Of a DNA stretch of 64,000 bases, positions 4,479-60,386 are shown piece after piece. Positions within the stretch are counted from its first letter, which is position 1. Each line of letters begins with the position of its first letter. Location: assembly GCA_000934665.2 (NCBI GenBank), contig JYFJ02001851.1, positions 1 to 64,000 of the forward strand. The letters run 5' to 3'. The notes under the pieces were generated by a model. That model had not been told where the DNA came from and searched no databases. It saw nothing but the letters and a program-made list of their open reading frames with translations. Both the position numbers and the translations under genes were made by a program. The stretch is from Catajapyx aquilonaris (taxonomy: Eukaryota).

Positions 4479-5080
4479 CAATGTGGTGAATTTTATTATT
4501 TATTATTAGCGGAACCTTCAAACCATTAAATGACTACTTTAGTCGGCAATATCGGCAGTAGAAGCGGACCTTTACAGCTGGTATACTCGCTATATGTAGC
4601 CTATATTACGTATTACTCTATTATGTAAGAAACTATTGCGGATTTCTCAGAAATCGTCGTCAATTTTGGAATTTAATTGTCATATTCGTGATCAGCACCT
4701 TTAAATCATTACTAAATGACTACTTTAGTTGGCAATGTCGGCAGTATAAGTGGACCTTTACTGGTACAAGTCATATGTACGTATTACTAGAAACTATTGC
4801 GGATTTCTCAGGAATCGTAGCCAATGTTGGGTTTTCATTGTCATATTCGGGATCAGCACCTTCAAATAATTAAGAAATGACTACTTTAGTCGGAAACGTC
4901 GGCAGTAGAAGATGACCTTTACTGTGGTAACGCTATATGTATACTACAGTACGTATAGGCCTATTGCTCTATTATGTAAAAAAAACTATTGCGAACTTCT
5001 CATGATTCGTAGCCAATTTTGGACTTTTATTGTCATATTCGTGATCAGCACATTGAAAATTATTAATAAATGTCTACTTA
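4479..5080. repeat. Diverged tandem repeat, ~160-190-bp unit, ~3.3 copies
   Basis: Anchor AAATGACTACTTTAGT at 4528, 4714 and 4875, degenerate at 5068. Blocks AAACTATTGCG and ATTGTCATATTCG(T/G)GATCAGCAC recur in each unit. Confidence 0.9.
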
Positions 5081-7181
5081 AATATCAGAAGTTTGACTTT
5101 TGTCAAAATTTGTTGCCCAGTATACGTGTCATAACTTATAATTATGCTACCATGCTTAGGCTATGCAGTGATATTCCTTCCACAGATTTTGAGGCATAGC
5201 ATGTTGGAGTGTTATATGCGGCAGAGTTTACAAACTTTACTGCAAACTGACTGGCAAGTCACATACAATAGTTACAAGCGATGGGTTACAAAGTTTTGTT
5301 CCAAGGACATGTGTCCAAATAATGCAGCAGTTGCACTGCATCATAGCTGAGAATTTGGCACGAGAAGAACTGGAATTACTGCACTAAAGTTAGAAAAAAT
5401 ACTGGGGGAGGGGGGGGGGGTCCTTTCAAAATAGGAACATTTGTCTTTTTTGTTGCATGGCTGGCAGCAGGATGGCGCCACATGAGACGATTTATTCCTA
5501 TCTCCCTTGCCAGCAAGGCCTCTTTTTTCCAACCCTCTCTTCTTCCGCTTTTTATGTATTAAAACCAGGCCCGGAAATTACAATAAAGTTTCCCCACGAC
5601 GCAGATTCAAAGTCCCGATTCTGGACACAATGGGAAAAGTTTTGAAGGTTGTAGCCAGCTTTGCTTTTGTCTGTGCTGGTGCACTTTTTTTCTTGCTACA
5701 GCGTATCGCCATTGACGCAATTTTCCAGTTGCAGTGTACCAATAATTTATTTACAGAAAAGGGGTCTCTTCTGCGATGTATGAATAATGACGGAATGCTA
5801 TTGTAGCGCTAGCCCAATGCGTAAGAAAAAGCAAAGTCCAGTCCTGGGTATGACCTTATTTCAAATCCGGCAGGAAATCGATTCTCCGGACCGTAATAAA
5901 CAGTGTCATTTGCCAGTAGACTACGCGGAGTCACACAGGCTATATCGTAGCGTATCACAGTTTCTCAGCCTTTTACTATCAGTTATCGACGTTCCGGATT
6001 TTGTCCCGGGTTCCGAAGAGAAATATGGCGTTTACTCTTGGTTTTATACCAGTCTAACGCTTAGCCACAAAAGTACAGGATGTTCCATAATAATTCAGAC
6101 AAACCTCTATATAGGGTGAAGTTCTGGATACCAGAAAATAAAGATGTCCCTTTTTACTTTTTACTCCATATACTTTTGGTTGTTTTGCCCCCTGTAGTGT
6201 GATTACTCGATACAAACAAAAAATAGTGTAATCTACGTAGTTTTAAAACTATAGGAAACATCTTTACGGCGATAACATTAGCTTGGCAATCACCTGTCGG
6301 TTAGGCGACTTCCATGGGCTATTACTTACCTGGTAATGTCACCAAAAACTATTGCAGCTGCACGCCTTCCGAGCACTTTTGGAGAACCCTTATACCTTCA
6401 CCCTATCCTATATACGTGCTCGTTCTTGGGATCAAGTGAGATTAGTGCGGTAATTGCAGTGTTTTCAGTTTCGGTTCCTGACATGAGCAGAAGCTGCAAA
6501 AAGTACAAAAATGATAATTGTAGACTGGAGAAAGCCGGAAGCACGAAATAATTTATAAGTGCCTACACGTACTTTCATCGATGGCGTAGATGCGAGTCTG
6601 AGGTAAACAGGTAATAACCACATCTTCATTTCATGAGAGCTCTGCGCTTATAGCCCTACTTGCTATAGGGCAAAATAATGCTAACAGTTCAGAGGCATTC
6701 ATCATAGAGTTTATTCTAAGGAAGTGCACAAAAGGCATGTCCAACTTGTCGTAATAGGGGTATAATGAGAAGAGCGGCAAGGAAATTTTTCGTGTCCAAG
6801 GTCACACAAGTTTAGGCGAACGTAACTGACTGCTATTATTATTATCATCGATAATTAATTTTTCGGGTCACCTGTACTACTTACCACAGACTATTATTTA
6901 CCTGTTGGGAGGGCCCGTCGCGTCGCGGAGGGCCCCTTTTGAGCGCGTGACATCTAAAAAAAATTACGAACTTCGATTGTTAAGAAATTGATGCGTGTTT
7001 TCGATATTTATTACCAATTACCTAAAGAAACTATAAATTTATGACTGCTAAAGTAGTTCGGGGACCCCATGCGTTCGATAATTGTAAAAGGAGCAGTGCC
7101 CCCCCCCCCTACCGCCCCCCGTTGCGTTGGAGGGGTACAGCGACCCATACACGCCGTCTCTGTGTGTCGATGTATAATTAT

Positions 7182-7342
7182 GTTAGGCTCAAACCCCGAA
7201 AACGGCCATTGGGCGAAAAAAAAACGTCCATACTGCTCTATGCCAAACCATCCATTCCGCAGAATGGATGGTTTGGCATAGAGCATTCTGCAGTATGGAC
7301 GTTTTTTTCGCCCAATGGCCGTTTTCGGGGTTTGAGCCTAAC
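7182..7342. mobile_element. Near-perfect fold-back (palindromic) MITE with 8-bp flanking duplication
   Basis: GTTAGGCTCAAACCCCGAAAACGGCCATTGGGCG...CGCCCAATGGCCGTTTTCGGGGTTTGAGCCTAAC; arms pair almost to the centre (~7259); ATAATTAT on both sides. Confidence 0.8.
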
Positions 7343-7359
7343 ATAATTATGTACAGTAT

Positions 7360-9907: not shown

Positions 9908-10208
9908 ATAATAATATCATAATATCATAATATCATACCCCGTTATCAGCCGGCGGCTCTTTAGGGGGGAGTTTTTGTTTTGACTGGAACTCTTTCTTTG
10001 CATTTTTACTTCGCTTTTGGGGATAGGATAGGGACGGAAGGAAGCGGCTGTGGCCTTTTATTTTAGGAAACAACCCTGGCATTTACGTGGAGGGACCGTG
10101 GGAAACCACAGAAAACCACGGTTAGGGTTGCCGGCCCCGGGGATCGAACCCAGGACATCCCGATTAGCAGTCGGATACCATATCCCCTCCGCCACCACTG
10201 CTTCGGTC
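9908..10208 (-). mobile_element. tRNA-derived SINE, family A, copy 1
   Basis: Minus strand: A-box-like TGGCGGAGGGG, B-box GGTTCGATCCCC, core GTGGTTTTCTGTGGTTTCCC...GGCCACAGCCGCTTCCTTCC, (TGATATTA)n tail. Flanking duplication CGGTGTACG(G/A)GATATA. Homologous to the copies at 39.4, 47.0 and 60.1 kb. Confidence 0.92.
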
Positions 10209-10235: not shown

Positions 10236-10776
10236 CAGGGTGATCCAACTCTATGGCACCAGTAGTTATTGAAAAAATCGCGCAAGCTGCTTGTTTATAA
10301 GCAAGTCGTTGCTAAGAGATGCTTTCTGGCTCTTTCTGGAGAATCGGGAATAGCACCTGCTGATATTAGGTCCAATGGCCATATAACAATAATATTTTAT
10401 TTGCTGGTAACTAAACAACGCTGCCTGTTGACCTGCCTCAGTTTTGCCAACAGCGGCCAACAATGAACAGACCAGAAGGCCTATTTATTGACACACCCGG
10501 GTCTGTCCAGTTCCGACGGATTAGACCTTTGGTTTGGCAGCTAGTGACCTCATGTGAAACCCTCCAGCGAACACCAGAACAGGCCTGTTTCCCACGGATG
10601 ATCCTTTTTTCCCTCATTAATATTGTCACATGGGCATTGGACCTAATATCAGCAGGTGCTATTCCCGATTCTCCAGAAAGTAACTCTTATTGATCTCTTA
10701 GCAACGACCTGCTTATAAACAAGCAGCTTGTTGATTTTTCCAATAACTGTTGGTGCCACTGAGTTGGATCACCCTG
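10236..10776. mobile_element. Tc1/mariner-type MITE, ~85-bp TIRs
   Basis: CAGGGTGATCCAACTC...CAAGCTGCTTGTTTATAAGCAAGTCGTTGCTAAGAGAT mirrored by ATCTCTTAGCAACGACCTGCTTATAAACAAGCAGCTTG...GAGTTGGATCACCCTG|TA. Confidence 0.88.
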
Positions 10777-12512: not shown

Positions 12513-13260
12513 TATAAAAGCGGCAAAAGTAAATAAATAGTAAATGGCGAGCGACGTCCAGGACATCCAAATCGATTTCCTTTTACGCTCCAGTCCAGCC
12601 AGTGCAAATCCCAACTTGATCCTTACTGAAATATTGTGGGATAGAAAGACAATGCGCAGAAAGTCAAACAATAGTGCGAAAACGGCTGTCAGCCGCAGCT
12701 GAAAAAGGTTTCTATGATCAATGCGAATATTCAAATGTGCAGGGCTAGCCCATCCCAGCCCTGTGCCCCCAGGCTTGACCCAACCGGTGACGTAGCCGTC
12801 CTTCAGACTGCCCCTAGTCACCGGACGTCCTTGATCATTCCTGGTCCCGATCACGGGCAAATATGCAGCATTTGAATGATTCCATCCAGCCAACGCTTCC
12901 TTCCTTCCTTCCTGGGGCCAAATGCAGGGGAGTAGGGGCCAAACATGATGATCGATTGAGGCGCACTGAGACAGAGCGCATGGTGGACCTGGCTGGGAGG
13001 CTACCCGCCATGATGCCTCTGTGTGCTCTGCTCTCCTGCCGGTAGAGGCGCTGGGAACAACCGAGGGTTGGGGGCAGGTGGAGGCACGGGTGGAGGGTAG
13101 CTGCGTAGGATAGGGGCGACGAGGGAAGCCAGCGAGCGATAGCGGAATCTACCCCCCAAACCCCCCAGTCTTTCCAACCCCACCCCCTACCCACCCGCCT
13201 GGCCTGGTCGGGAGTCTCACTCACTCACTCACTCACTCACAGGCAGCAAGCCAGCAGAAC
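12513..13260 (+). promoter_or_regulatory. Candidate core promoter and GC-rich 5' leader of the + strand gene
   Basis: TATAAAAG at 12513-12520 with AAATGGCG (YY1-like) ~30 nt downstream. GC-rich stretch with no recognisable TE leading to the ATG at 13261; (CTCA)n at 13216-13240. TSS position is inferred. Confidence 0.35.
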
Positions 13261-13413
13261 ATGGCGGCGGCAATGGCTGTATCAGTTAACGGTGCGGGTG
13301 TGGAACAAGGCAGCCAGACTATCAAGACAGAATTGGTGGCAGCCATTAAAGCGGAGGATATGATGGTCAACGGATCGCAGACGGACCTGACTTCAGGGAG
13401 CATTGCACATTCG
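13261..13413 (+). CDS. Probable first coding exon (51 aa, phase-0 donor) of an unidentified long-intron gene, possibly a nuclear regulator
   Basis: Good Kozak context AAC ATG G; MAAAMAVSVNGAGVEQGSQTIKTELVAAIKAEDMMVNGSQTDLTSGSIAHS; consensus donor TCG|GTAAGT at 13414-13419; GC-rich context; (GCAG)n just inside the intron. Confidence 0.72.
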
Positions 13414-13463
13414 GTAAGTTTTTGTATTGTTGCGCTTTGTGCAGGTTGGCAACCGTGACCCTG

Positions 13464-13491
13464 AGGCAGGCAGGCAGGCAGGCAGGCAGGC
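13464..13491. repeat. (GGCA)n microsatellite
   Basis: aggcaggcaggcaggcaggcaggcaggc seen directly. Confidence 0.9.
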
Positions 13492-24734: not shown

Positions 24735-24778
<44 letters not shown>

Positions 24779-24825
24779 GGCCCCACTGTGATGTGGTTAA
24801 GCCACAGGCCTTTCACGGGTTAACC

Positions 24826-24885
<60 letters not shown>
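24735..24885. repeat. (TTA)n - 47-bp spacer - (TAA)n inverted microsatellite pair
   Basis: ~44 bp of (TTA)n at 24735-24778 and ~58 bp of (TAA)n at 24828-24885. Confidence 0.92.
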
Positions 24886-27800: not shown

Positions 27801-28271
27801 GAATATAGAAAATTCTCAGATTATGGCATTTAAGCGTATACGCCATTACCGTTTTCGCTCTCAGTCCGCGATGTAATCTATGCGGCTTTTGTCCGAACTT
27901 GGCATTTACCTCCAGTTAAGCACTTAATTGAACTGCATAACTAGCTCCACCAATAAGAACCTTGCATCGGTGGACAAGGCAAGCCCAAAATCTGGGAATA
28001 GTCATTTGAGACTATCCGTGTTTGTGGCGCCAGATACTATCTAATTTGATAAACATGGCGTCTTGGCGCTAGACGAGCAAAGAGATGCGTGGCCGACCCT
28101 TTGGTGGGTTGACACACTGGCGGGGATGTTGTATGGGAGAAATTATTCACAAAGCCTGCCCTGAAGGAGATGACGTTGAGTCGGCGTCGATATGTGTGCC
28201 TAGAGAGTATCCAAGTAGCCAAGGGCGCCCTGTTGCTCCGCAGTGATAATTCATTCCTGCCAGGCAGGCCT

Positions 28272-28367
28272 CTTCCTTTCTTCCTTTCTTCCTTCCTTCC
28301 TTCCTTCCTTCCTTCCTTCCTTCCTTCCTTCCTTCCTTCCTTCCTTCCACCTTCCTTCCTTCCTTCC
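28272..28367. repeat. (CTTC)n microsatellite
   Basis: Long TTCC tandem run seen directly. Confidence 0.95.
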
Positions 28368-30119
28368 TGTTGGAGTTTATTTGTATTTGCAATGGCTTCT
28401 ACCGAGGTTTGCAGCCATATGCAGGGGGCATATATGAAGGGCAGCCGAGTTGAGGATGAGCAACATGGCGCCTGGGTAGCAAATTGATATACTTCTCTCT
28501 GGGCCTAGCCAATTTGGAAAGCCGGACCGTAAATAATGCCTGCCTTGAAGTGCACTCCAGCAGACGTATCGAGCGGTTGCTACCCCAGAGCTCTGTCCCC
28601 TCTTCTCCCTGCCTACCCCTCCCTGTCTCCTTTTCGTCCGACCAAACAAGGAGGGTCATCTGGCAGTGGGATTGGTCCATTGCTTCAAAATTAGTACATA
28701 GCTGCGCCGGGCAGGAAACTCTATTTCCCAGGCAAGATGAGATGGGATGGTTGCCTGTAGTATCCATAGTTACTTCCCTACTTTTCAAAACAATAGCTGT
28801 AGGCAGAGATTTCACCGTCCTCGCCTGCATCCAGGACGGGGTAGGAATTAACATGCCTCTGCTGTTTGCTTTTTCCTCCATTGTAATTTATTAGGACAAT
28901 ACTTGCATAGTGAGTCATGATTGGAAGTATAGTTCAGTTCGGCTTAAAGGGCCACATCAGAATTGAACCGTTCAGGCTTAAATTACATTACGCAAACGGG
29001 TATCTTCAATGTATGGCACAATATAGAGTAATTATGTTGTCAACGATGGTATACGACCATTACTGACCTAGAGAAGGACACCCATTACTCTAAAATGTAT
29101 GTCATTGAACAATCTGAAAGTATGAGTGGGATTCGTGTTGATATTAAGCACAATTGAGCTGAGGTAAATAATGGGTTTGGACAGCTGTCAGTATATGCCT
29201 AATGAAAGAAGTAGGCGAAAGAGAGGACAAGTGAAGCTGGTATTTGCGAAGGCCAATATGATAAGAGCAGCCTTCAAATTGATGAACTCCGGACCGGTTT
29301 TGGTTCGGTCAGTTCCGCATTTTTATTCTCGCTTTGCATTGTAAATGACGGAGTTTCATACGCTATTGTTGTAGGGGGGGGGGGGAGGAGGCAGCGTCTG
29401 CCTTGAGGAACGAGATACATTTGGAAACTGGAGTCGGCGCCGAAAAAGACAATCTGTGGAACCGGAATAAAGCGTTATCAGGGCGGAGGAAAATGTGCAT
29501 GGAGTATACTGTACCGCTCTGCCGATTGAGACAAGTGCATTGTTGGGAATGAGAGCGAGGTATTGATTGTACGTGGCGGGACTTGGTGATGCAGGTTTGG
29601 AAGTGCCGAGAAAGAAAATTTCCAGGCAATATAGGAAATATTGCGTAACATCCAAATTCCACTTTTACGATTGTTGTAATTCATTGTAGCCACGCTGACA
29701 TTCCTCCACTTGGGATGGTTCTTCCAAACTAGGGCGTAGGATTTTATAGAGCTGCTTGCCAGCAGTAATGCAGGCAAGTTACTGTCGTCAATAGTTTGTT
29801 TCATGTCCCTGAAACATGGGAGTACTTACCATTATTGGAATTTTGGTGGCTCCGGCGGGCTTGGTGTAGAAACGCCTGAAAGTCGCCGAAAAAAAAACGC
29901 GTGTCCCTCCGGAGCCAGACGAGGTTTTGCGTAATGCGGACCATGGCTGCGTTCCAATACCGCGGCTCAACGTTGGCGCCGAAATTTTTTATGCTGGACT
30001 CAGAATTGATGCCTCCTACCTCCTTACTGCATTTTAGGCGGTGTTTGCGAACTACCACTGGCAGTAATGCCGCGATAAGGAGCCAAGTTTTTTTATTGAA
30101 ACCGGCTGGAATAATTATA

Positions 30120-30899
30120 CGTGGGTTGATTCATAAGTCATTGCGCGTATTTTTTAATTCAAAAACGGTAACACATACAGATATGACCTTTGCTGAGTTT
30201 TGAAGATCTGGCGAATAAAATTTGATCTGGCATATAGATGTCGCGAATATTGCGAGGGGGGTGGGGAAACAAAAGGATCATGACCCCCCACCGCACCATC
30301 GTCCTAAGACGGCTCCAGCCTGACGCGCTTGGAGCTGTTGGACGTTGTTGCATGCTGGACACTCGGAGATGGACAACACTGGAGCTTGCTTTCGAGTGTG
30401 GGACAAGTCAGAGCACTATGCTTAGGACTCTGAAAGACTAAAAGGTCTCAGGAAGTTGGCATCCTCACTGGTTCCTCTCCATCTCTTTGAGGTGCAAAAG
30501 TGCCACCATTTTGCCCTCGCTTGGAACTCGATCGCATTGAGGGCGATGGTTTTTTAAAAAACTGCCTGTGGCGATCGATGGATGACACATGGCCGGAAAT
30601 AGTTCTCTGACTTGTCCCACACTCGAAAGCTAGCTCCAATGTTGTCCATCTCCGAGTGTCCCGCATGCAGCGTCCCAACAGCTCCAAGCGCGTCAGGCTG
30701 GAGCCGTCTTAGGGGGATGGTGCGGTGAGGGGGTCACGATCGCCTTTTGTTTTCCGGCCACCTTGCGATATGGGAGACATCTATATGCCAGATAAAATTG
30801 TAATCGCCGGATCTTCAAAACTCAGCCAAGGTCATCTGTGTATGTGTTACCGTTTTTAAATAAAGAAAATACGCGCAATGACTTATGAATCAACCCACG
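30120..30899 (+). mobile_element. mariner-derived fold-back element, family C copy 1 (TA TSD, ~300-bp arms)
   Basis: TA|CGTGGGTTGATTCATAAGTCATTGCGCGTATT ... AATACGCGCAATGACTTATGAATCAACCCACG|TA; arms 30120-30419 and 30599-30899. Encodes degraded mariner transposase motifs DTRRWTTLELAFECGTSQSTMLRTLKD, GLRKLASSLVPLHL (WVPH-like) and EGDGFLK..VAID. Confidence 0.92.
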
Positions 30900-39404: not shown

Positions 39405-39687
39405 GACCGAAGCAGTTTGGTGGAGTGGCTATAGGGTCCGACTGCTAATCGGGAGGTCCTGGGTTCGAGCCCCGGCAACTCTAACCGTGGTTTTCTGTGG
39501 TTTCCCAATGTCCCTCCAGGAGAATTCCGGAGTTGTTTCCTAAATTAATAGGCCACAGCCGCCTCCTTCCTTCCCTATCAGATCCCAAAAAGCAAAGTAA
39601 AAAATAATGTACGCAAGAGTTCCAGACAAAACAAAAATCCCCCCTAAAGAGCCGAAAAAGGCTGATACGGGGTAAGATATTATTATC
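39405..39687 (+). mobile_element. tRNA-derived SINE, family A, copy 2
   Basis: GACCGAAGCAG..TGGTGGAGTGG (A box)..GGTTCGAGCCCC (B box), same core and tail as copy 1; TSD ATAT(C/A)CCGAATG at 39393-39404 and 39688-39699. Confidence 0.92.
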
Positions 39688-41026: not shown

Positions 41027-41358
41027 GTGACGTTAGCTGATGTCCCCCACCGAGGGGGATTGGCCGCGGTCGGCGCTAGAGTCATGAACCGAGATGGCCA
41101 CCATCTCGGTTCATGACTCTAGCGCCGACCTTACAGTCCTAGCGGGGCAATTCTGAACCCTTTTGGTCGACTCCGATTGGCTGGTGTTTAAAAAGGCCAC
41201 CTGTACTCTTTTTAACCAATACACTACCTCCAGCCAATCGGAATCGACCAAAAGGGTTCAGAATTGCACCGCTAGGTAAGGCGCCACCTGTACTGGCACT
41301 TGACTTTAGCGCCGACCGTGGCCAAACCCCCTCGGTGGGGGAGATCAGGTAACGTCAC
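41027..41358. repeat. Nested triple inverted-repeat element (branched fold-back)
   Basis: Outer arms 41027-41084/41301-41358; perfect 30-bp hairpin 41068-41130; 47-bp stem 41138-41184/41230-41276 with 2 mismatches. Confidence 0.9.
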
Positions 41359-44870: not shown

Positions 44871-46804
44871 GGAGAGGGGAAGGCGTGGCATTGCAGGAAT
44901 GTGCGCTGCTAGTCTATTGCTCGTGCAGACAGGTCATTATGCTGTTGACGTGTTGACCTGCTGGTAATATTACACAGAGTTGGACCTATAGTAAGTAGTC
45001 ATGTGCTGTGTTACATGAACTGCAATATAATCAGAGCACTCCTATAGCCACCCAATTTGTTGTTTGTTGATATACATTGTAAAATGATATGCTTTGTTAA
45101 ATACCGCGCGTCCATTAATTTATGCCGGGTAATTTGTCATGTAATGACACGAGACCATTTATTATAATTAATTTAGTTGTAGCGATGATTACATTGACAG
45201 CCTTTTTTTAAATGGTTACTTTCACATTTTAGTAGGCAGGATTTTAATTTTGAGTCGCGGCAATAATGATTTGACTGCTTTCTGGAAGGGTTTAAATACA
45301 TTTTGAGTGCATCATAAGCAGTGATGGCTGGGTCAGTGGAAGGTCCTTTAGTTCTAAAGAAGCAAGCTAGGAAAGCAGAAGCCAAGCAGAAGTGGAGCGA
45401 GTGCGCAGTTATGGTGGTTGTTATTTGTGCGTGCGACGGGGTCTGGTGAATTTGTCCCTCATTGATTATGACGTGAAGCGTACCGTAGGCCTGTGTAGGA
45501 TCTTGATGTGAAATGGTTTTGTTGTTGCTAAGCAAATAGGGGGGTTGTTGCCCTGGAAAGGTTTAGGAATGGACAGTACACAAAGGAATTTTGGCACATG
45601 TTAGGGATGGTTGGGGGAGGGTCGAACACGTAGCCTCCGACGTTTAAAGCCCTATTTTCATAGTCTTGGGAAGATAAAGACGGATCAATACGTATTTCGG
45701 TAGCTCGTGGCAAGCCGGCCAAAACTTGGTAATATGTACGTGAACAAGCTGTACTGTATATTCAACTCCGGGTAAACTTAGTGGTGGCGGCCCGCACATT
45801 CAACCATTGAGGTACCGATTTCGATCTCTCGACTGAACAAGGGGAGTTCTTGGTTTGCCATGTTGCTTTGTTGGTTGTTGTTGTATTTGGTTATGTGGGC
45901 GCTACAGCATGAAGACACACACACACCGAGTCCCCTGGCATAACTATGATAATTGATGAACATTACTGTAACCATAATGATTCCCAGAATTCCGAGTCGA
46001 TGGAGAATCACGAAATCAGTGCATAAATATCAGATAATTGTTCATAATATGACTGAGTCATTAGAGAATGACTAACGCACGTAGTGAGGCCGGTAGAGTT
46101 TTGTACGGGCTTTTCCCCATCTGTGGTTCAAGTTCGATCGAAGTAAGCCCGCCAAATGCGAGGCTCGAACTCGGGACGGCAAAGCGGGCGGTTAAAGTAT
46201 ACATGCCTGTCACCTTTCTGTTACGGTAGGAGAAATCCAGCTTTGATATTGGTCTATCAGGAATAACTGAAATATAATTTGTGCACTAATTCCTTGACAT
46301 TCTTATTATGTCGAGATCACCATGTAGCGCAAAAGTGCGTTGGTATATTGAGTCTTTGTGGGTGGTCAGGAGGGCCATGCCATGGCGCTTGTAGAGAAGT
46401 GTAATTGAAAGAGAGTAATTATTATCTGGCAGTAAACATAGTGAGAGGCTTTGATGCTCAGTGTGGGACAGTGGGGGAATTGTTTCGTATTCGGTTTCGT
46501 TACGAGCGCAGTGGCTGGTGCCTGTCGCATAGCGACACACAATGGAATCGTGACTTGCTTTGTTTTCGGAGGACACTAGTGCTAGAAACCAATATGCATC
46601 AGGCAGGCAGGGGCTTTGGTACGCCGTGGGAATGGTTGCAGTCGGATTCCAGTTGGGGAGGGAGAAGGGGATGGGGGAAACGAGGGTACAAACCACCCCT
46701 ACCCACTCGATGCTGCTGGAATATAGCCTACCCTGTATTCAGTATTCACCAACGTCATTTGCTGTGGGAGAGAGAACGGAGGAGCTGATGATAAGGGTAT
46801 CCAC

Positions 46805-46870
<66 letters not shown>
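46805..46870. repeat. (CTA)n microsatellite
   Basis: ~22 perfect units seen directly. Confidence 0.95.
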
Positions 46871-46874
46871 ATTA

Positions 46875-47177
46875 ATAATAATAATAACCCCATTGGGAGA
46901 ATCAGCGCTCCATTAGGGGGTGGGGGGGGGGGNGGGTGGAACACCACCATTTTACCATTCAAATTCTTTCTGAAACTTTCACACATGGATGGGGCCAAGG
47001 ATAGGGAAGGAAGGAAGCGGCTGTAGCCTATTATACGGAAGCGATCCCGGAATTATCCTGGGGGACCATGGGAAACCACAGAAAACCACGGTCAGGATCG
47101 TGGGCCCCGGGCATCGAACCCAAAACCTCCCGATTACCAGTCGGACTCCTTAACCACTACACCAACCTGCTTCGGTC
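46875..47177 (-). mobile_element. tRNA-derived SINE, family A head/core with a different 3' tail
   Basis: Head and core (~46999-47177) align with family A; 46888-46998 is unrelated to the family A tail; ends in (TTA)n on the minus strand. Confidence 0.8.
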
Positions 47178-51389: not shown

Positions 51390-52190
51390 TATGGGTTGTT
51401 TCATAAGTCATTGTGTGTATTTTTTAATTCAAAGACGGTAACACATACAGAGATTACCTTTGCGGAGTTTTGAAGCTCTGGCGATTACAATTTAATCTGG
51501 CATATAGATATCGCCCATATCGCAAGGGAGACAGGGAAACAAAAGGGAATCATGACCTCCCCACCGCACCATCGCCCTAAGACGGCTCCAGCCTGACGCG
51601 CCTGGAGCTGTTGGACGCTGCATGCGGGACACTCGGAGATGGACAACGCACTGGAGCTTGCTTTTGAGTGTGGGACAAGTCAGAGAACTATGGCCAGAGC
51701 CATGTGTCATCCATATCCACAATCTGTTTTTAAAAAACCATCGCCCTCAATGCGATCGAGTTCCAAGCGGAAGGCAAAATGATGGCACTGTTGTACCTCA
51801 AAGAGATGGTGAAGAACCAGTGAGGATGCCTAGCCAGCTTCATGAGACCTTTCAGTCTGTCAGAGGCCTAAGCATAGTGCTCTGACTTGTCTCACACTCG
51901 AAAGCAAGCTCCTGTGTTGTCCATCGCCGATTGTCCAGCATGTAGCGTCCAACAGCTCCAAGCCGTCTTGCAGTTAGGGCGATGCGATGGTGCGGTGGTG
52001 GTGGTTGGGGGGGGGGGGGGGNAGGGTCACGATCCCCTTTTGTTTCCCCGCCTCCCTCGCGATATAGGCGACATCTATATGCCAGATCAAATTGTAATCG
52101 CCGGAGCTTCAAAACTCAGCAAAGGTCACCTCTATATGTGTTACCGTTTTAGAATTTAAAAATACGCGCAATGACTTGTGAAACAACTGT
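51390..52190 (-). mobile_element. mariner-derived fold-back element, family C copy 2 (inverted relative to copy 1)
   Basis: Same arms (GGGTTGTTTCATAAGTCATTG...AATACGCGCAATGACTTGTGAAACAAC). The central spacer is the reverse complement of the copy 1 spacer; termini are more decayed. Confidence 0.9.
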
Positions 52191-52209
52191 ATGTCTGTAT
52201 GACTGTATC

Positions 52210-52597
52210 CTGCTGTTGCCACCGTGGAAGACAAGATAGGCCCCACCCCTATCACCAGTCATGGCCAGTACTGCTGCCAAATGTGGAAGGCGCGGGAACC
52301 GAATCCACGGGGTTTCCAACAACTATCATATATAGTTTATGACTTGATGGCAAGGGACTCCTTTATTTACCTCTTCTATCCCCAATAAACTCCCTTCCAC
52401 CGCTCCCGAGTCCCCACATACACCCCTCCCTTGCAACTCAGCAGGGGTGTGACAAGACGGGAAATACGGTTAAGCTCTACTCCAATGCTATTTCTTCATC
52501 AGCTTTCCCTAATACTACAAAAAATAGTCGAACATATTTCCAAGTGTGAATTTCCAGTGGGCGGGGCCTATCTGGTCTTCCACGGTGGCAACATCAG
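52210..52597. mobile_element. TIR MITE, ~39-bp inverted repeats
   Basis: CTGCTGTTGCCACCGTGGAAGACAAGATAGGCCCCACCC / GGCGGGGCCTATCTGGTCTTCCACGGTGGCAACATCAG; ATC on both flanks. Confidence 0.75.
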
Positions 52598-53122
52598 ATC
52601 ATGACTACTCTAGATTGAAGGGACTAAAATACAACACTGGCTGCTTCATTTCGAATCCAATCCAAGGCATAGAGGATAAAATGATTACACGGGCTTTCAG
52701 TTTCATTGACTTTATTGAAGGAAGCCATCGGGAGCCGTCTTACAAGTTAGTTGCAGAGGCTTCGGCCTATTCACATTCTCGGATGTTAAGAAGCAGTGAA
52801 TATATCAGTTATATGAAGATTGAACAAATTGTTTAACATCAGAGAAGACAAAATTGAACACTTTATTTGTACTGCACTTTAGCCTACCATTACTGTACAT
52901 GCTGATTGAAATACTCCTAGTAATTCAGTCTCAGTCATTTAAGCCTGCCTGTTTCATCGCGGTGAATATGGATGTAGTTCATGCCGTGCGGGCCGCCACG
53001 GGTAATCCCCCTCTACTCCCTCTGCATTGTTCAAGTACAGTACACCGCACCGCTTCGATTTGGTCATAATATGCTACAGTATATTAGTCAGTTGTCATAC
53101 TTGTACTGTAATAATATCGTGT

Positions 53123-53154
53123 CTAATCAGGTTTCTCTCTCTTTGCAGGTGAGT
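53123..53154 (+). promoter_or_regulatory. Candidate recursive splice site (ratchet point, AG|GT)
   Basis: Branch-like CTAAT (53123-53127), pyrimidine tract TTTCTCTCTCTTTG, CAG (53146-53148) directly abutting donor consensus GTGAGT (53149-53154); same strand as the 13261 exon. Confidence 0.68.
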
Positions 53155-53902
53155 TGAGCTGAATCAGACTACTGCAGGGGCATGTTGGGCCTGTGCGTGA
53201 AGCTGTCAGCAGCCTTGTAGGGGAAAGTATGCAACTGATTGGCCACTTTCATCTTGCGCGCTTAATTACAAGGCATGTTGCCACAGTTCGGTATATAGCT
53301 GCATTCTGCAGATTTGACTATTTGAATGCCACAATGCAATAAGGGCCCAACTGTCAATTTTTACGGAAATGCTTTTATTGCATATTGTACTTCCTGAGGT
53401 GGATGTCCATCCGTATAAAATGCAAGAAGAGGCGAAATGTCACTAGTAATGGCTGAAAAAGGCCTATAACCATCGACAGACCAAAACGCGATTGACGAAC
53501 GTGATTGTCACTTGAAAAGCGCGATTTTAATACACTACAAGTGACCCGCGATTTGAAAATAGCGGTGATTTTTAAGCGCGACGTGATTTTTGTCTCATCG
53601 CTATTTCTGAATAAGATGCGTTACTTTACCATTTAGAACGTTCCCCTCTGAGGAGCGTTGCTAAACATAGTGGAAAATAAAGTAGACTTGTCTGTCTATA
53701 TGTCACCAAAAAATCATTGACCTGCGTCCTCGGGAAGTGGTCAAATATGGCCGCTACTTTATAAGGTAGACCTAGGTGGCATGGGAGACCAAAAAAAACA
53801 TTAAATTTAATTAAATATAATATGTAATTACTCTGAAACGAATAATGTGTCTCATGTTATTCGTTCATTTTATCTTGAGACGGTTTATTTCTCCATATTT
53901 AA

Positions 53903-54865
53903 GGTGGATATGAAGCTAAGGTTCACATTTTGACATCGTTTTGAAATTCACAGGGTTTATAGAATAAGAAGCCCTCTTCCCAATGGTGGAAAAAAATCAC
54001 TCCTAACCGGGCAAATAAGCTCGCAAAATGGCTCAGAATGTGCCGACTGTCCATAAGCTCCAATGTTAAATTAAAACTTTATTTGAAAGCATCTTCACAT
54101 TTTGACAGTTTGAAATTAATATATGTGAAATGTGAAGAATAATATAGTAATTACAAAGAACGCAGAAAAAACATATCAAACCGAATGATTTAAATTGTTA
54201 TCGTCGAAAAAAGAAAAAGGGGGCGGGGCTAGCCTGAGGCACGGGAGGAAGTGGCAACATGGCAGTCTTCCTACGAAATGGCGCGCAGATTGTCCGAATT
54301 TGAAATATGTGGTCACAACCAGGGTTCTTAGATAAAACTATACTGTAATAAATAAGCGCACAAATACAGTATATTTCAACCTAGCCAGAAAATGTCGAGC
54401 ATCGTGCACTTGGAACGCGCCATCTTGGACAGGGGGAGGGGCGAAAGCCGCGTTGCCACCTCTATTTCCCAACAGGTCTACCAACTTACCGTAAATCAAA
54501 GCCTATACTTATCCCCTTTCCTTTCCGAAGATAATGTGTATTATATGTAATGGATGTAACACGACATTGTAGAGCCTCGTAACTGTCACCCACTACCGTC
54601 GCGTCGCCTTTGATCCTAAATATGCTGCCTATGGTAAACTAAAAATTCAGGTGTGTACATTCTAGTAGGTTGGCAATGTGTTGCAAGTGAATTAGGTTTT
54701 GCCCTGTAAGAAATCGAGTTTACGGTGGATTTTAAAATGGAATGCATATGATTCATCAGCATCCACTACTGCATTAGATGCATATGTTTCCCCGAATTTA
54801 ACTGCTCTAATTAGCGTTTTTGTTCTAGACACTGAATTGACTAGGGAAGTAGCTTCATATCCACC
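53903..54865. mobile_element. Non-autonomous Kolobok-like DNA transposon (TTAA TSD)
   Basis: TTAA|GGTGGATATGAAGCTA ... TAGCTTCATATCCACC|TTAA: perfect 16-bp TIR with purine-purine termini (not the CCC of piggyBac). Confidence 0.8.
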
Positions 54866-57800
54866 TTAAGCCAAAGGAACGATACAATGCAAGAAGGGCC
54901 CACTTGTGAGCATTAAAAGTATTTGAATAAAATATAATTTACATGGACATTTCAAGGAAAGTGCTGTCAGGTATTCATGTTGTACATATCTGTCATTAGA
55001 TTTAGAGCACAATTGCCTACCATGAACAGAAACAGAAATAAATATGTTTTTTTTCGCTTCCTGGACATTTTCAATTTTCACAATTGGACCCTTATTGAAT
55101 TGTGGTCTTCATTTATTAGGTCCACTTTTGACACCTGTGACGCAATACATAATGATGAGAAAGAATGAAATGTTCTTTATTTTCATCCAACGCTTCTGTG
55201 TTCACTGGTGAATTTCTTACCATTTGATAAGAAATTTATGCCCAACCAATTTATTTCCTCGATTTAAGACCCCTACTTGATTTTACGCATGAAACTCTTT
55301 TAGCCCCCCGTTTTAGCAAAAAAAATTGAAAGTTGTCTGTAACTCAGAGGTGGTCAATAAACTGTTCATGTAATTATGTTGCACCGTAATTACTGACTGG
55401 CACACCCATGTCAATCACTCTTTTGGTGCCATATTTTGCAATTTTGTTGGTTTTACCATCTTAATTACTCCTCATTCCTCCTTTAATGAGCTTGATTGAA
55501 TTGCCGCGCATGCGCCAATGACTGGGTGAGCCTGGCAAGAGACTGACTCTGTGGTACTGTAATCTATGATGTTTCTTAGTATCTGGCGGGTTCCCTGGAG
55601 TTATACCAATCATATGGAACATTTCTCATTAATGAAAACCGCCGTACACAGCTGGTGGTGGCGATTTCAGGGATTTTTAACGACTGAAAGAACATTATAA
55701 AAATTATGAAGTAGAGGCTTTCCAAAAGGCCTGGTTTTATAGCCTTGTAATTTGTCCCATAGTGAGTTTTTTTTCAGACTCGACCCAAACTGGTATAGTC
55801 ATCCAGAGGAGTCTGATACGTGGATATTCAATGCATTTTCGTTCCTTCAGAGCAAAAAAGCAGCCGCTGGAATACTTGTAATAGGCGTAGAAGTGAAGCC
55901 AGTAAAAGCCTGCTACTGTATATTGTGAGACACTCTGTTGGCTTCTCAAATCGACTCGTTTACCTTTCAGCCACCAAGAAAGTCAAGTATTTTTAATGGC
56001 TCTTAAATGGGTGGCCATTCACTGCACTTTATTGCTGATTTTTAACCATAATTTAACTACTGTTATTATATTAATCGTGCAATTAATAGTTCCGTACAAT
56101 TGCCCGCTAAATGGCCGCTTTTGTAGGAAATACATCTACTTAGGTGTGGCATGTAACATTTTAAAAATCATATGCAGAATTTTTTTTCTTTGTGGTTAAT
56201 AACTGTCTACCTTCTCCAGAGTAACTTACAGCTACACCAGTGATGACACGAATCTGTCGCAATAATGCGAGATACTCTGCATATTTATTGGCAGACATGG
56301 TGACAGCGGAGCAATGCAAAGAACTATGACTCCCACTTTGATACGGTATCCTGCCGTGTACGGTGTATTTTATCTGAGACGTGTATTGGAGCAAAGTGGC
56401 GTATACAGTAATCCCCCAGGGGCTCCTCTTGCCTCACCCCAGGCAGAACCACTTGCACCGACGTGTTTTTCGAGAAAGTGGTTGGGAGTAAAGCAGCAAT
56501 ATGCGTCAGTGGCAAGTTCGGTTACGTACATATTTCGGCTAGATTGCACATTAACTCTGGTAACCCGCCAGCCGACATTCGATGCTCTTGTTGCCTCTGA
56601 GGATACATGAGTAGCCAGGCATTCATTGCGAGAGCATGCACCGTGTCTGCTTTTTTATGACTGATTATTACCTGGAAGCAAGTTTGGATTCTGACTGGTT
56701 TAGGAGAAGGGCGCACCTTTATTAGAACACTTTTCGTGCAGGAAATTATTTCCGGCTGTTAGGCGTCAAATGATTGTTTCCGATTTGTGGACAAGAAGAA
56801 AGGGGACATAGCCATCGAATATTCCTCTCTGGCAGGCACATGCGCCAAATGGTTAATCACCTTCCTGCTCAGGTCATGCACTCACCATGGCATGGGGGCT
56901 GGGGAAGGGTGGGGAATACGACAATTGGAGCGGAGGACCTTCCCCCGTCGGGTCCCACATTCTCAGGGGAAATACCTAATCTCTTCGTTTTCATGTCTGA
57001 CGTGCTGAGATGGTGCGAAGACTAACCCGGGACATTTGAGAAGGAAATGTGCACGCAAGTGCAGAATAGACCTCAACAAATCATTGCCCGCCCCTACTTT
57101 CCAGCCCACCAGAGGCCTCTTTATGGACGCAATCGCACCATAAGCAGTCTAGTAAATGTATTGGGGTATGCTCATCTACTGAAGGTGAACGCACGTTTAC
57201 GTAATTTCCTTATAGTAGGAAAGTCGCCAAACGCGGACCCGGCGCTTAATGCGGACCACTGGCTTATTTTGTCAACTAGGTGATTCAGACTAAAAGCGAG
57301 ACGGCCAAAAGCTACTAGAAATAGAGTAGAAGTAACAATATATGTAGAAATATAACGGTTACTTAAATGCGCAACACTTTAAAAAGCCATGTTTTCAAAG
57401 CAATGCCCTTCCCCAATGTGTGTGGGCTTATCTTCGTTAATTTTAGGTAATCAATGATGGAAAACGATGGCAGCTAAGTGGAACCTGAAGCGATTAGATC
57501 GTCGACTAATTTTCGATTTACAATGTCAGACTTCGATGTTTTGCTAATTTTCTTTTAAATTGTTGTTATTTATGTTATTTATGTTCACCATTATATATTT
57601 TCCAATACCTCATTCCAATGCATAACTTAACTTTGTTTTCATTATCCCCAGACTACTTATTTGCATTTGGAGGTCCTAATTTGAAGGAAAAAGGGAGGGG
57701 GTCTGAATTTGGAACCCTTTTCCTGGAGCATCATTTTTGCAGACTTTTACTAAATTCAAAAATGCCATAATTTGGAATATTTACGTGGATTTTGTTATAG

Positions 57801-59083
57801 CCAGTTTTTAGGTAACTAATCAAAGAATCTTTTGACATTGAGCAATTAAGTGTAACTTTAACATTTAGGAAGTTATACGGGAAAGACGAATTGGGGGTCC
57901 GCGTTTGGCGACTTTCCCAATAGATTATTTTTTGGCTGGAAATGTTTTCACCATTTTTATGTCGTACGAATTTGTACCTGTTCGAACCGGACGCTCTCTA
58001 CCGATCTTACAGGAGTCAGATTGTCTCTTTTTGTCCTCCCACTCTCTTGCGGCCTCATTGGTCTCCAGAAGAGGTCTGGGTGGAATTGACGTCTGTAGTG
58101 CGACATCCATTTATTGCCCGGACCCATCCCTCGATGTGTTGCCCAGGAGAGGCCAACTTTTAGTCCCAGTCGCCAAATCATGGGGAATTTTGCTGTGGGG
58201 TCATGTATAAAGAACGTCGCTCTGGTGTTTTTTTTTTAAACAAACAAACTCCTGACAGCAGATTTTGCTACCTTGATATTTCACGCAGGGGAATTCAAAA
58301 GCCACGGAATATATTTCAAGAAGTAACATATCTTGGGCCTATTGTATATACACTGCCGGAGGGAGTTGAAAAGTTAGAGGATTCGCAGTTTCGGATTTTG
58401 TTCTGAAAAAAATAGTACAATACATAAGTATACGAAGTTGTATTAGCGGCAAGCGGCAATTGTGCTACTTTTTTGTACTTTCGGAAATGTTTTTGCTTTG
58501 TCCTGGCATTTTTGTAGCGGTTGGGACAAGCCTCAAGGGAGGAAACGGGGTCCTACCACATCAGAACAAAAAGTCACGGAGTCTGCCAATGCCACCCGAA
58601 TGCCGAAGGGCCGCTTAATTTTTTTAAAACTGTACAGCACAATGAAAAAGTAGTGACTCATCACAGGAGGTCTTATGCTGAACGAGTCTTAAACGGTTCA
58701 AAATGCACGTACTTTTTCAGAATTAGCATAAAATGGAGGTCATTAAAAAAAATCGATCTGAAAAGCAGGCACAGGCTGACGATATATTCTAGTGAATTGA
58801 GAAAAATGTCGCCCAGCACACGTTCTAGCTTTTACAAGACGACGCCCGCTTTTCTTCTGAACCTTTGAGAGTTCATCGGACGCCCCCAAATCCTTGGAAT
58901 ATTGCCCCACGCTTTCCGATGCAATTTGACAGCTGATTCTCGAATATCCCTATAGATATACTTGTACATATAGCCCGCCTTTATTCTTTACCGCTTTTGA
59001 GAACATCATGCTATAGGGGACTAAATATCGTCAGTTATTTCCATCACCAAGTAGAATTTTCTCTGCCTGGTGAAGCCCATTTA

Positions 59084-59209
59084 GGGCCAGTTTCACCGAG
59101 CTCTGTATATGATAAAACCAGGTTTCTTTAGAAAAATCCATACAAATATGTAGGGATTTTCCCAAAGAAACCTGGTTTTATCATATACCGAGCTCAGTGA
59201 AACCGGCTC
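59084..59209. mobile_element. Harbinger-like mini-MITE, family B copy 2
   Basis: GGGCCAGTTTCACCGAGCTC...GAGCTCAGTGAAACCGGCTC; shares the internal TAGGGATTTTCC.AAAGAA with 17334-17440. Confidence 0.8.
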
Positions 59210-60104
59210 TCCTAAAGATTCATAATAAGCCATCGAGCCAGGATTTTTTGCACTTGGCATTGGAGGGTGGTACAATAATCCATTTGCTGAGGGCGATATT
59301 TGACCTGATCTGTGTGAGCAAAACCTCCGGATTTGAAGAGCCAGGTAATTTAAGAGTGGTCGGCAGTATATTGGAGCACTAAAATGGATATGGAGCTTCC
59401 ATCTGCATGAAATCCCATTGCCGGAAATGAGGTGGAGGAAGCAAAATGAGCACCTAAGTTGGTTACCCCGCGAACGTTCCGGGGTTGGTTGGCACTCAAT
59501 CGCTTGTTTCCTCTGGAGGTGAGTTACGATGGCACATGGGTAGTATTTTGACCGGTACTTAACATGTTTGTGTTCGCCGACGCTAAGGGGAATTTTATGG
59601 CGCTTAAGGGTCCATAGAACGTGGCCTAGGTGATAAGCTGTGTGATTTTTAACTCCAGCTTACCGTCACAAGGAGGGTTAACTCTCAAAAATATGAGAAC
59701 GAATTTGCACTTCCTACGTACTTGTGCATTGGATGCCGCTAGTTTATAGGATATGGGACGTTGTTTTTACTATGATGACGCTGTTTCGGGATACCTTCAT
59801 GCTATGAACGGGGCAGCCGGATTTTTAGTGGCGCAAAACATGTGAAAACCTGAAATGCAGAACGATCAGGCAAAAAGTGAGTTAGGTATTGATTAATGTA
59901 CTTTCTAATGGTCGAGTCACATTTCTGATAAAGAAATTTGCGAGCAAACCAATTATCCCATAACCATAAGAGGTAATGCAAATTTCAAATTTCAAACCAT
60001 CATATTTCGAAATCAGTAAAATGTCACTCTGATCGTTCTGTTTGCCTTCAGATGGTAGAGCCTGTGTGCCGTTGAGTCGTTGACTAAATTCCACGTGAAT
60101 AATA

Positions 60105-60386
60105 ATATAATTCATACCCCGTTATCAGCCTATCGGCTCTTTAGGGGGGAAGTTTTTGTTTTGCCTGGAACTCTTTGCTCTCTTTTTACTGCGCTTTTTG
60201 GGATAGGATAGGGACGGAAGGAAGCGGCTGTGGCCTATTAATTACGGAAACAACTCCGGAATTTTCCTGGAAGGACCGTGGGAAACCACAGAAAACCACG
60301 GTCAGAGTTGCCGACCCCGGGATTCGAACCCAGGACCTCCCGATTAGCAGTTGGACGCCTTATCCACTATGCCAACCTGCTTCGGT
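60105..60386 (-). mobile_element. tRNA-derived SINE, family A, copy 3
   Basis: Full head/core/tail (A box TGGCATAGTGG, B box GGTTCGAATCCC); perfect 12-bp TSD ACGTGAATAATA at 60093-60104 and 60387-60398. Confidence 0.93.

Follow-up and report, generated by a model that had tools for sequence, protein, structure and literature searches.

The DNA analysed here, a stretch of 64,000 nucleotides (the 64-kb window), is continuous apart from single N bases at positions 46933 and 52022 and is almost wholly non-coding. No Pfam domain was detected in 208 of the 209 stop-to-stop open reading frames (ORFs) of at least 75 amino acids, a set that takes in all but the frame at 46702-47052 on the minus strand; the sole match listed, to Yae1_N, fell below threshold (16.8 versus 27.5 bits) and came from a low-complexity ORF. 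The best coding candidate of the window, predicted from codon periodicity and ORF length, is a putative first coding exon at 13261-13413 on the plus strand. This exon begins with an ATG in the context GAACATGG, comprises 153 nt or 51 codons, ends in phase 0, and carries G at codon positions 1, 2 and 3 in 24, 7 and 20 of its 51 codons, which is a coding periodicity. It is followed by the donor TCG/GTAAGT (GTAAGT at 13414-13419), with 7 of 9 consensus matches. Donor strength is given throughout as the number of matches to a nine-position donor consensus. Among the 27 GTRAGT sites of the plus strand, the donor at 13414 has the longest open frame upstream of it (300 nt). A passable acceptor, CACTCACTCACAG/GC at 13242/13243 with 15 pyrimidines in 20 positions, precedes the putative exon, and 13261-13413 may therefore be exon 2 behind a non-coding leader. 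The 51-amino-acid peptide gave no match with phmmer among 1.84 billion representative proteins, which for so short a query is weak evidence, and a word search limited to longer proteins yielded no homologue (16 candidates, none of which scored).

Far downstream on the same strand, the sequence GTCTAATCAGGTTTCTCTCTCTTTGCAG/GTGAGT places the last G of an acceptor at 53148 and the first G of a donor at 53149. A sequence-only reading of this DNA had reported a 3′ splice site fused to a consensus 5′ splice site at this boundary, and we confirmed that both halves of the motif are real and lie at these coordinates. The candidate branch point is CTAAT (53123-53127), a match to the YTNAY motif whose branch A at 53126 occupies position −23. 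The only AG ahead of the acceptor is at 53129; because it lies just 3 nt past the branch A, the acceptor is the next usable AG. Between the two runs an uninterrupted pyrimidine tract of 13 nt, TTTCTCTCTCTTT (53132-53144), whose T residues at 53143 and 53144 are positions −6 and −5 of the acceptor. The acceptor CAG (53146-53148) then abuts the candidate donor GTGAGT (53149-53154), which matches the consensus at 9 of 9 positions as it stands in the genome and at 7 of 9 once joined to the upstream exon, where it would read TCG/GTGAGT. The span from 53132 to 53154, TTTCTCTCTCTTTGCAG/GTGAGT, thus has the direct fusion of acceptor and donor that defines Drosophila ratchet points. We found no second copy of the region 52900-53400 within the 64-kb window, and neither a 26-mer nor a 32-mer that spans the fused motif had an exact match in the metagenome contigs scanned.

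Two further candidate donors stand a short distance behind the fused site, as the sequence-only reading had also noted. Use of the first, CCT/GTGCGT at 53193, would delimit a cryptic recursive-splicing exon (RS-exon) of 44 nt at 53149-53192 on the plus strand, and use of the second, AAA/GTATGC at 53227, one of 78 nt at 53149-53226. Both donors match the consensus at only 6 of 9 positions and are weaker than the fused donor, whether the latter is scored in the genome or after regeneration. Joined in phase 0 to the exon at 13261-13413, the cryptic exon reads GTG AGT TGA (V, S, stop), again in agreement with the earlier reading, and both other phases stop within 4 codons. Since all three frames close so soon, a coding exon cannot start at 53149. 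A premature stop on inclusion, the property of a poison exon coupled to nonsense-mediated decay (NMD), is therefore present in the sequence, and the donor strengths predict that the cryptic exon would be skipped. According to Joseph et al. (PMC8605326), ratchet points normally come with a stop-bearing cryptic exon, and so its presence here is not an additional feature.

From the end of the putative coding exon at 13413 to the acceptor at 53148 the distance is 39,735 nt, and the two donors at 13414 and 53149 share a strand, both as previously described; the segment removed, if the site is used, would be 13414-53148 on the plus strand. Likely, then, the candidate site is held in a giant first intron. 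We infer this intron, because a next exon was not found: a crude enumeration of splice sites and ORFs gave 15 candidates, none convincing. Assignment of the site to an intron, and of the gene to the plus strand, draws on base composition and one predicted exon. Within the window, G+C content is highest (53.5%) around the upstream exon. The CpG observed/expected ratio is ~0.8 in the window (about 0.7-1.1 throughout). Vertebrate genomes are CpG-poor, and the ratio argues against a vertebrate and agrees with an invertebrate origin. It did not help to locate promoters or gene bodies, being ~0.7-1.1 everywhere.

Strand asymmetry provides the other compositional evidence. The excess of G over C on the plus strand begins at the upstream exon: it is seen in 36 of the 39 bins of 1 kb that cover 13414-53148, with a mean skew of 0.094, compared with 8 of 12 bins before the exon at 13 kb (mean skew 0.025) and 9 of 10 past the candidate site. 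Mammalian genes and introns are reported to have an excess of this sign on their non-template strand (PMC10030826). Transferred from mammals to this DNA, the pattern fits a plus-strand transcription unit that would extend from near 13 kb to beyond the candidate site. The candidate site shares its strand with both the best coding-exon candidate and the G-over-C skew. The skew that sets in at ~14 kb is flat at 52001-56000 (−0.012 and 0.003 in two 2-kb bins) and recovers towards the end of the window; a symmetric foldback element close by may contribute to the flat part.

That element is ~750-800 nt long and is present in two copies, 82-95% alike, at 30122-30868 and 51392-52187, the second of which ends ~1 kb upstream of the candidate site. 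Each copy is made up of long inverted repeats, whose arms measure 124-176 nt, and looks foldback- or MITE-like. Another repeat, of ~130-190 nt, is present in four copies that are 61-90% alike (10003-10194, 39472-39603 in inverted orientation, 46973-47164 and 60183-60386). The copy at 60183-60386 overlaps tRNA-like sequence (Rfam tRNA, 30.5 bits; ARAGORN tRNA-Ser(GCT), 60309-60380, minus strand), and by appearance the four copies form a SINE family of tRNA origin. Three of them fall in the putative intron, two in antisense orientation relative to the gene. Beyond the tRNA-like element at 60309-60380, Rfam and ARAGORN searches of the window returned nothing. A perfect inverted repeat of 49 nt (7174-7222 and 7302-7350, 100% complementary, 79-nt spacer) and hairpin-type repeats at 10332-10680, 41027-41358 and 59083-59210 were also observed. 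A (CTCA)n tract lies directly before the putative start codon and a (GGCA)n tract ~50 nt into the intron. Microsatellite or tandem-repeat regions were recorded at 13218-13241, 13466-13490, 24735-24880, 28250-28375 and 4527-5058, together with long (TTA)n/(TAA)n blocks, (GGAA)n-type tracts and units that recur at a spacing of 161-192 nt.

To judge how unusual the fused motif is, we applied a composite test to every AGGT site, which called for at least 15 pyrimidines in 20 positions, followed by YAG and GTRAGT. It was passed by 1 of 222 sites on the plus strand and by 0 of 217 on the minus strand (439 in total in the 64-kb window). Markov simulation of 400 sequences of 64 kb at each of three orders gave mean numbers of composite sites per 64-kb strand of 0.010 (order 1), 0.0225 (order 3) and 0.0175 (order 5), and of 0.0025-0.0075 when a pyrimidine run of at least 10 was also demanded. 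An empirical estimate that assumes independence gave 0.006-0.07 chance sites per strand. Two routes were taken to this range: multiplication of 59 acceptor-like sites by 27 GTRAGT hexamers per 64,000 positions, and multiplication of 1-2 YAG/GTRAGT sites by the fraction of pyrimidine-rich 20-nt windows (3.5-4.9%). The motif is unusual inside the window, with p roughly 0.01-0.07, values that are optimistic because the thresholds were fixed after the site was seen. Three other plus-strand positions, 13444, 20912 and 43402, came through the loosest AG/GT test and were rejected as further ratchet points on account of their poor donors (GTTGGC, GTTGGA and GTGCGC).

Ratchet points are best characterized in Drosophila. 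Among the 197 fly examples of Duff et al. (10.1101/006163), the fused 3′ and 5′ motifs are accompanied by an especially strong pyrimidine tract, TT is found at −5/−6 in 196, and branch points lie mostly at −36 to −21; host introns measure 11-133 kb and the segments removed 2.6-63.6 kb. Joseph et al. (PMC8605326) show that ratchet points also need a cryptic exon of ~50 nt, with a donor of lower strength than the regenerated donor; the content of such exons is poorly conserved and either out of frame or stop-bearing. For kuz and Bx in flies, they show that a weakened ratchet donor shifts splicing towards inclusion of the cryptic exon. High-confidence recursive sites are reported for 63% of introns of >40 kb in fly S2 cells (PMC6110457). 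All of the sequence features of Drosophila ratchet points that we examined are present at 53148/53149, the branch point as a motif match, and the ratchet-point architecture claimed by the sequence-only reading is borne out in its details. As in the ‘zero-nucleotide exons’ of Ubx, kuz, osp, fz, luna and Bx, acceptor and donor are fused as AG/GT; the pyrimidine tract is prominent, with a 13-nt run and T at both −5 and −6; and the candidate branch A, identified by motif match, is at −23, within the 21-36 nt seen in flies. The site also lies tens of kb into what would be a very long intron (39.7 kb), with a short cryptic exon of 44 or 78 nt and a weaker donor behind it, as described for flies (PMC8605326). 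There are differences as well. The GTGAGT donor departs from GTAAGT, the fly consensus as quoted in PMC2773006, and there is one site here, behind a first segment that at 39.7 kb is long beside the fly mean of 18 kb. Conservation of ratchet sites is a Drosophila hallmark, whereas the present site is known from one sequence.

Base rates from other genomes indicate what such a motif may mean. For introns >50 kb, Shepard et al. (PMC2773006, Table 2) give the density of high-scoring ratchet motifs per 100 kb as 2.196 on the sense strand and 0.101 on the antisense strand in fly, 1.029 and 0 in mosquito, 0.807 and 0.101 in beetle, 0.540 and 0.066 in sea urchin, and 0.484 and 0.122 in bee. The excess of sense over antisense is therefore 4-22-fold in sea urchin, bee, beetle and fly, whereas sense/antisense ratios in eight vertebrates are 0.9-1.5 in the same source. 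By our own arithmetic on this table, 75-95% of the sense-strand motifs in long introns of the five invertebrates exceed the antisense background, and that background, ~0.07-0.12 per 100 kb, agrees with our chance estimate. If the lineage studied here resembles those invertebrates, and if the site lies in a sense-strand intron, the motif would more probably be real than not. We discounted this argument, since the gene model is putative, the lineage may differ in its use of ratchet points, and the motif was chosen for looking perfect.

On balance we favour, tentatively and at somewhat under an even chance, the interpretation that 53148/53149 is a used intronic ratchet point of the Drosophila type. 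The sequence anatomy, the scarcity of such motifs in the window and the match to published ratchet features are observed; we infer both that the site belongs to an intron of a plus-strand gene and that it is used at all. Under recursive splicing, the spliceosome would first define a short cryptic exon, from 53149 to 53192 or 53226, by means of the strong acceptor (branch A at 53126, pyrimidine tract and CAG) and one of the weak downstream donors. The exon that ends at 13413 would then be joined to 53149, the intervening 39.7 kb would leave as a first lariat, and a strong donor, TCG/GTGAGT, would be recreated at the junction. This regenerated donor would be expected to outcompete the weaker donors of the cryptic exon, which would consequently leave with the rest of the intron, with no trace in the mRNA. 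Occasional use of a weak donor would instead insert 44 or 78 nt, and the V-S-stop reading would yield a truncated and probably unstable message.

The main competitor is chance, by which a strong stretch resembling an acceptor happens to adjoin a consensus donor in non-coding DNA and the spliceosome ignores the pair or uses it at noise level. We consider this unlikely, though it is the alternative that carries most weight. The components are plentiful in the window, where acceptor-like stretches number 59 (plus strand) and 78 (minus strand) and GTRAGT hexamers 27 and 28, respectively, and a coincidence rate as low as that estimated above still implies hundreds of look-alikes in a large genome. 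The site was picked for its motif, which is a selection effect. Nor is there an excess on the sense strand: perfect MAG/GTRAGT donors occur once on the plus strand (53149) and twice on the minus strand (50175 and 6329), and weaker composite motifs number 1 versus 2 under criterion C and 4 versus 5 under criterion D (plus versus minus). In vertebrates, too, antisense strands are reported to carry such motifs about as often as sense strands (PMC2773006). A chance origin has to contend with the p-value within the window and with the high proportion of long-intron sense motifs that rise above background in the five invertebrates. It must also absorb the added details that fit, namely TT at −6/−5, the branch-point distance, the AG-free zone ahead of the acceptor and the weaker donors at 44 and 78 nt.

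Improbable, by comparison, is an ordinary unannotated exon boundary, at which one half of the motif functions and the other is coincidental. GTGAGT might be the donor of an exon that ends at 53148, either a frame-preserving cassette of 108 nt (53041-53148) behind a pyrimidine-rich acceptor (its ACAG ends at 53040) or an alternative first exon; otherwise the acceptor might open a non-coding or terminal exon. The open frame upstream of 53149, at 171 nt, is the third longest among the 27 plus-strand GTRAGT sites, and 53041-53148 is open in phase 0, with 13 of 20 pyrimidines before its AG and 16 of 20 before another AG at 53035. The 171-nt frame, however, lacks coding periodicity (G at positions 1, 2 and 3 in 8, 8 and 16 of 57 codons), and the ORF at 52824-53066 has no Pfam match. 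To find a 13-nt pyrimidine run and a branch motif within the last 26 nt of an exon would be a 3.5-5% coincidence, and a coding exon that opens at 53149 is precluded by the early stops in all three frames. A regulated poison RS-exon is a sub-case of the ratchet interpretation: the ratchet point would function, and certain tissues or conditions would retain the 44- or 78-nt exon in the mRNA as a deliberate means of lowering expression of the gene. The V-S-stop after the upstream exon would suit it, as would candidate donors at the distances described for RS-exons (PMC8605326). We regard it as very improbable, given that the two donors behind the site, at 6 of 9, are weak compared with a ratchet donor of 9 of 9 and that, according to the same source, stops in cryptic RS-exons are the rule and no sign of regulation. 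The probability left over by use as a ratchet point, chance and an exon boundary is spread over readings that we have not framed, such as an element repeated elsewhere in the genome.

The candidate may also be compared with recursive splicing outside Drosophila. In vertebrate RS-exons (Sibley et al., 2015, as cited in PMC8605326), the cryptic exon is defined first and a 5′ splice site is then regenerated; two donors compete, and inclusion brings premature stops, a scheme that the arrangement proposed here would share. In human, recursive splicing is reported to be commoner in first introns whose upstream donor lies in CG-rich sequence (10.64898/2026.04.13.717821), a likeness to the 53.5% G+C around the upstream exon here. 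In the data of Shepard et al. (PMC2773006), however, the long introns of vertebrates are not enriched for the motif on the sense strand, and CpG at ~0.8 in the window does not look vertebrate-like. With poison cassette exons coupled to NMD the candidate shares a stop, which on inclusion would fall three codons into the insert. Such exons, however, are included in a regulated fraction of mRNA and are usually conserved, whereas the donor strengths here predict skipping. Other parallels are the motif-level predictions in long introns of sea urchin, honey bee, flour beetle and mosquito (PMC2773006) and a site in locust NPF1 that was predicted with a matrix and is supported by a U2AF65 pull-down (PMC8892266). 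Those cases are genome-wide statistics or a partly tested site, whereas ours is one candidate instance.

The element belongs to a known kind, its host is probably new, and it is a well-formed candidate but not yet a discovery. Experimental proof of recursive splicing comes almost only from Drosophila and a few vertebrates. The sequence-only reading regarded the process as little documented in non-model invertebrates, which is true of experiments but not of motif enrichment, as ratchet sites in non-fly invertebrates have been indicated by motif statistics in print since 2009 (PMC2773006) and by the one partly tested locust case (PMC8892266). Among the listed publications on recursive splicing in invertebrates, titles and opening lines of abstracts mention no demonstration in a non-insect invertebrate. 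At present the motif marks where to look in RNA.

A verified ratchet point in another invertebrate would widen the known range of the mechanism, and a verified intron with a single such site would offer a clean test of whether subdivision of long introns improves splicing accuracy. The strongest form of the proposal, that a non-insect invertebrate uses this ratchet point constitutively and belongs to a lineage with a fly-like sense-strand excess of the motif, is a slim prospect, a shade less probable than the exon boundary discussed above. If it is true, the 44-nt stop-bearing exon would act as a conditional off-switch, and the site would count as direct evidence for Drosophila-style stepwise removal of giant introns, by way of short cryptic exons, as a widespread or ancestral trait of invertebrates and no speciality of dipterans or of insects.
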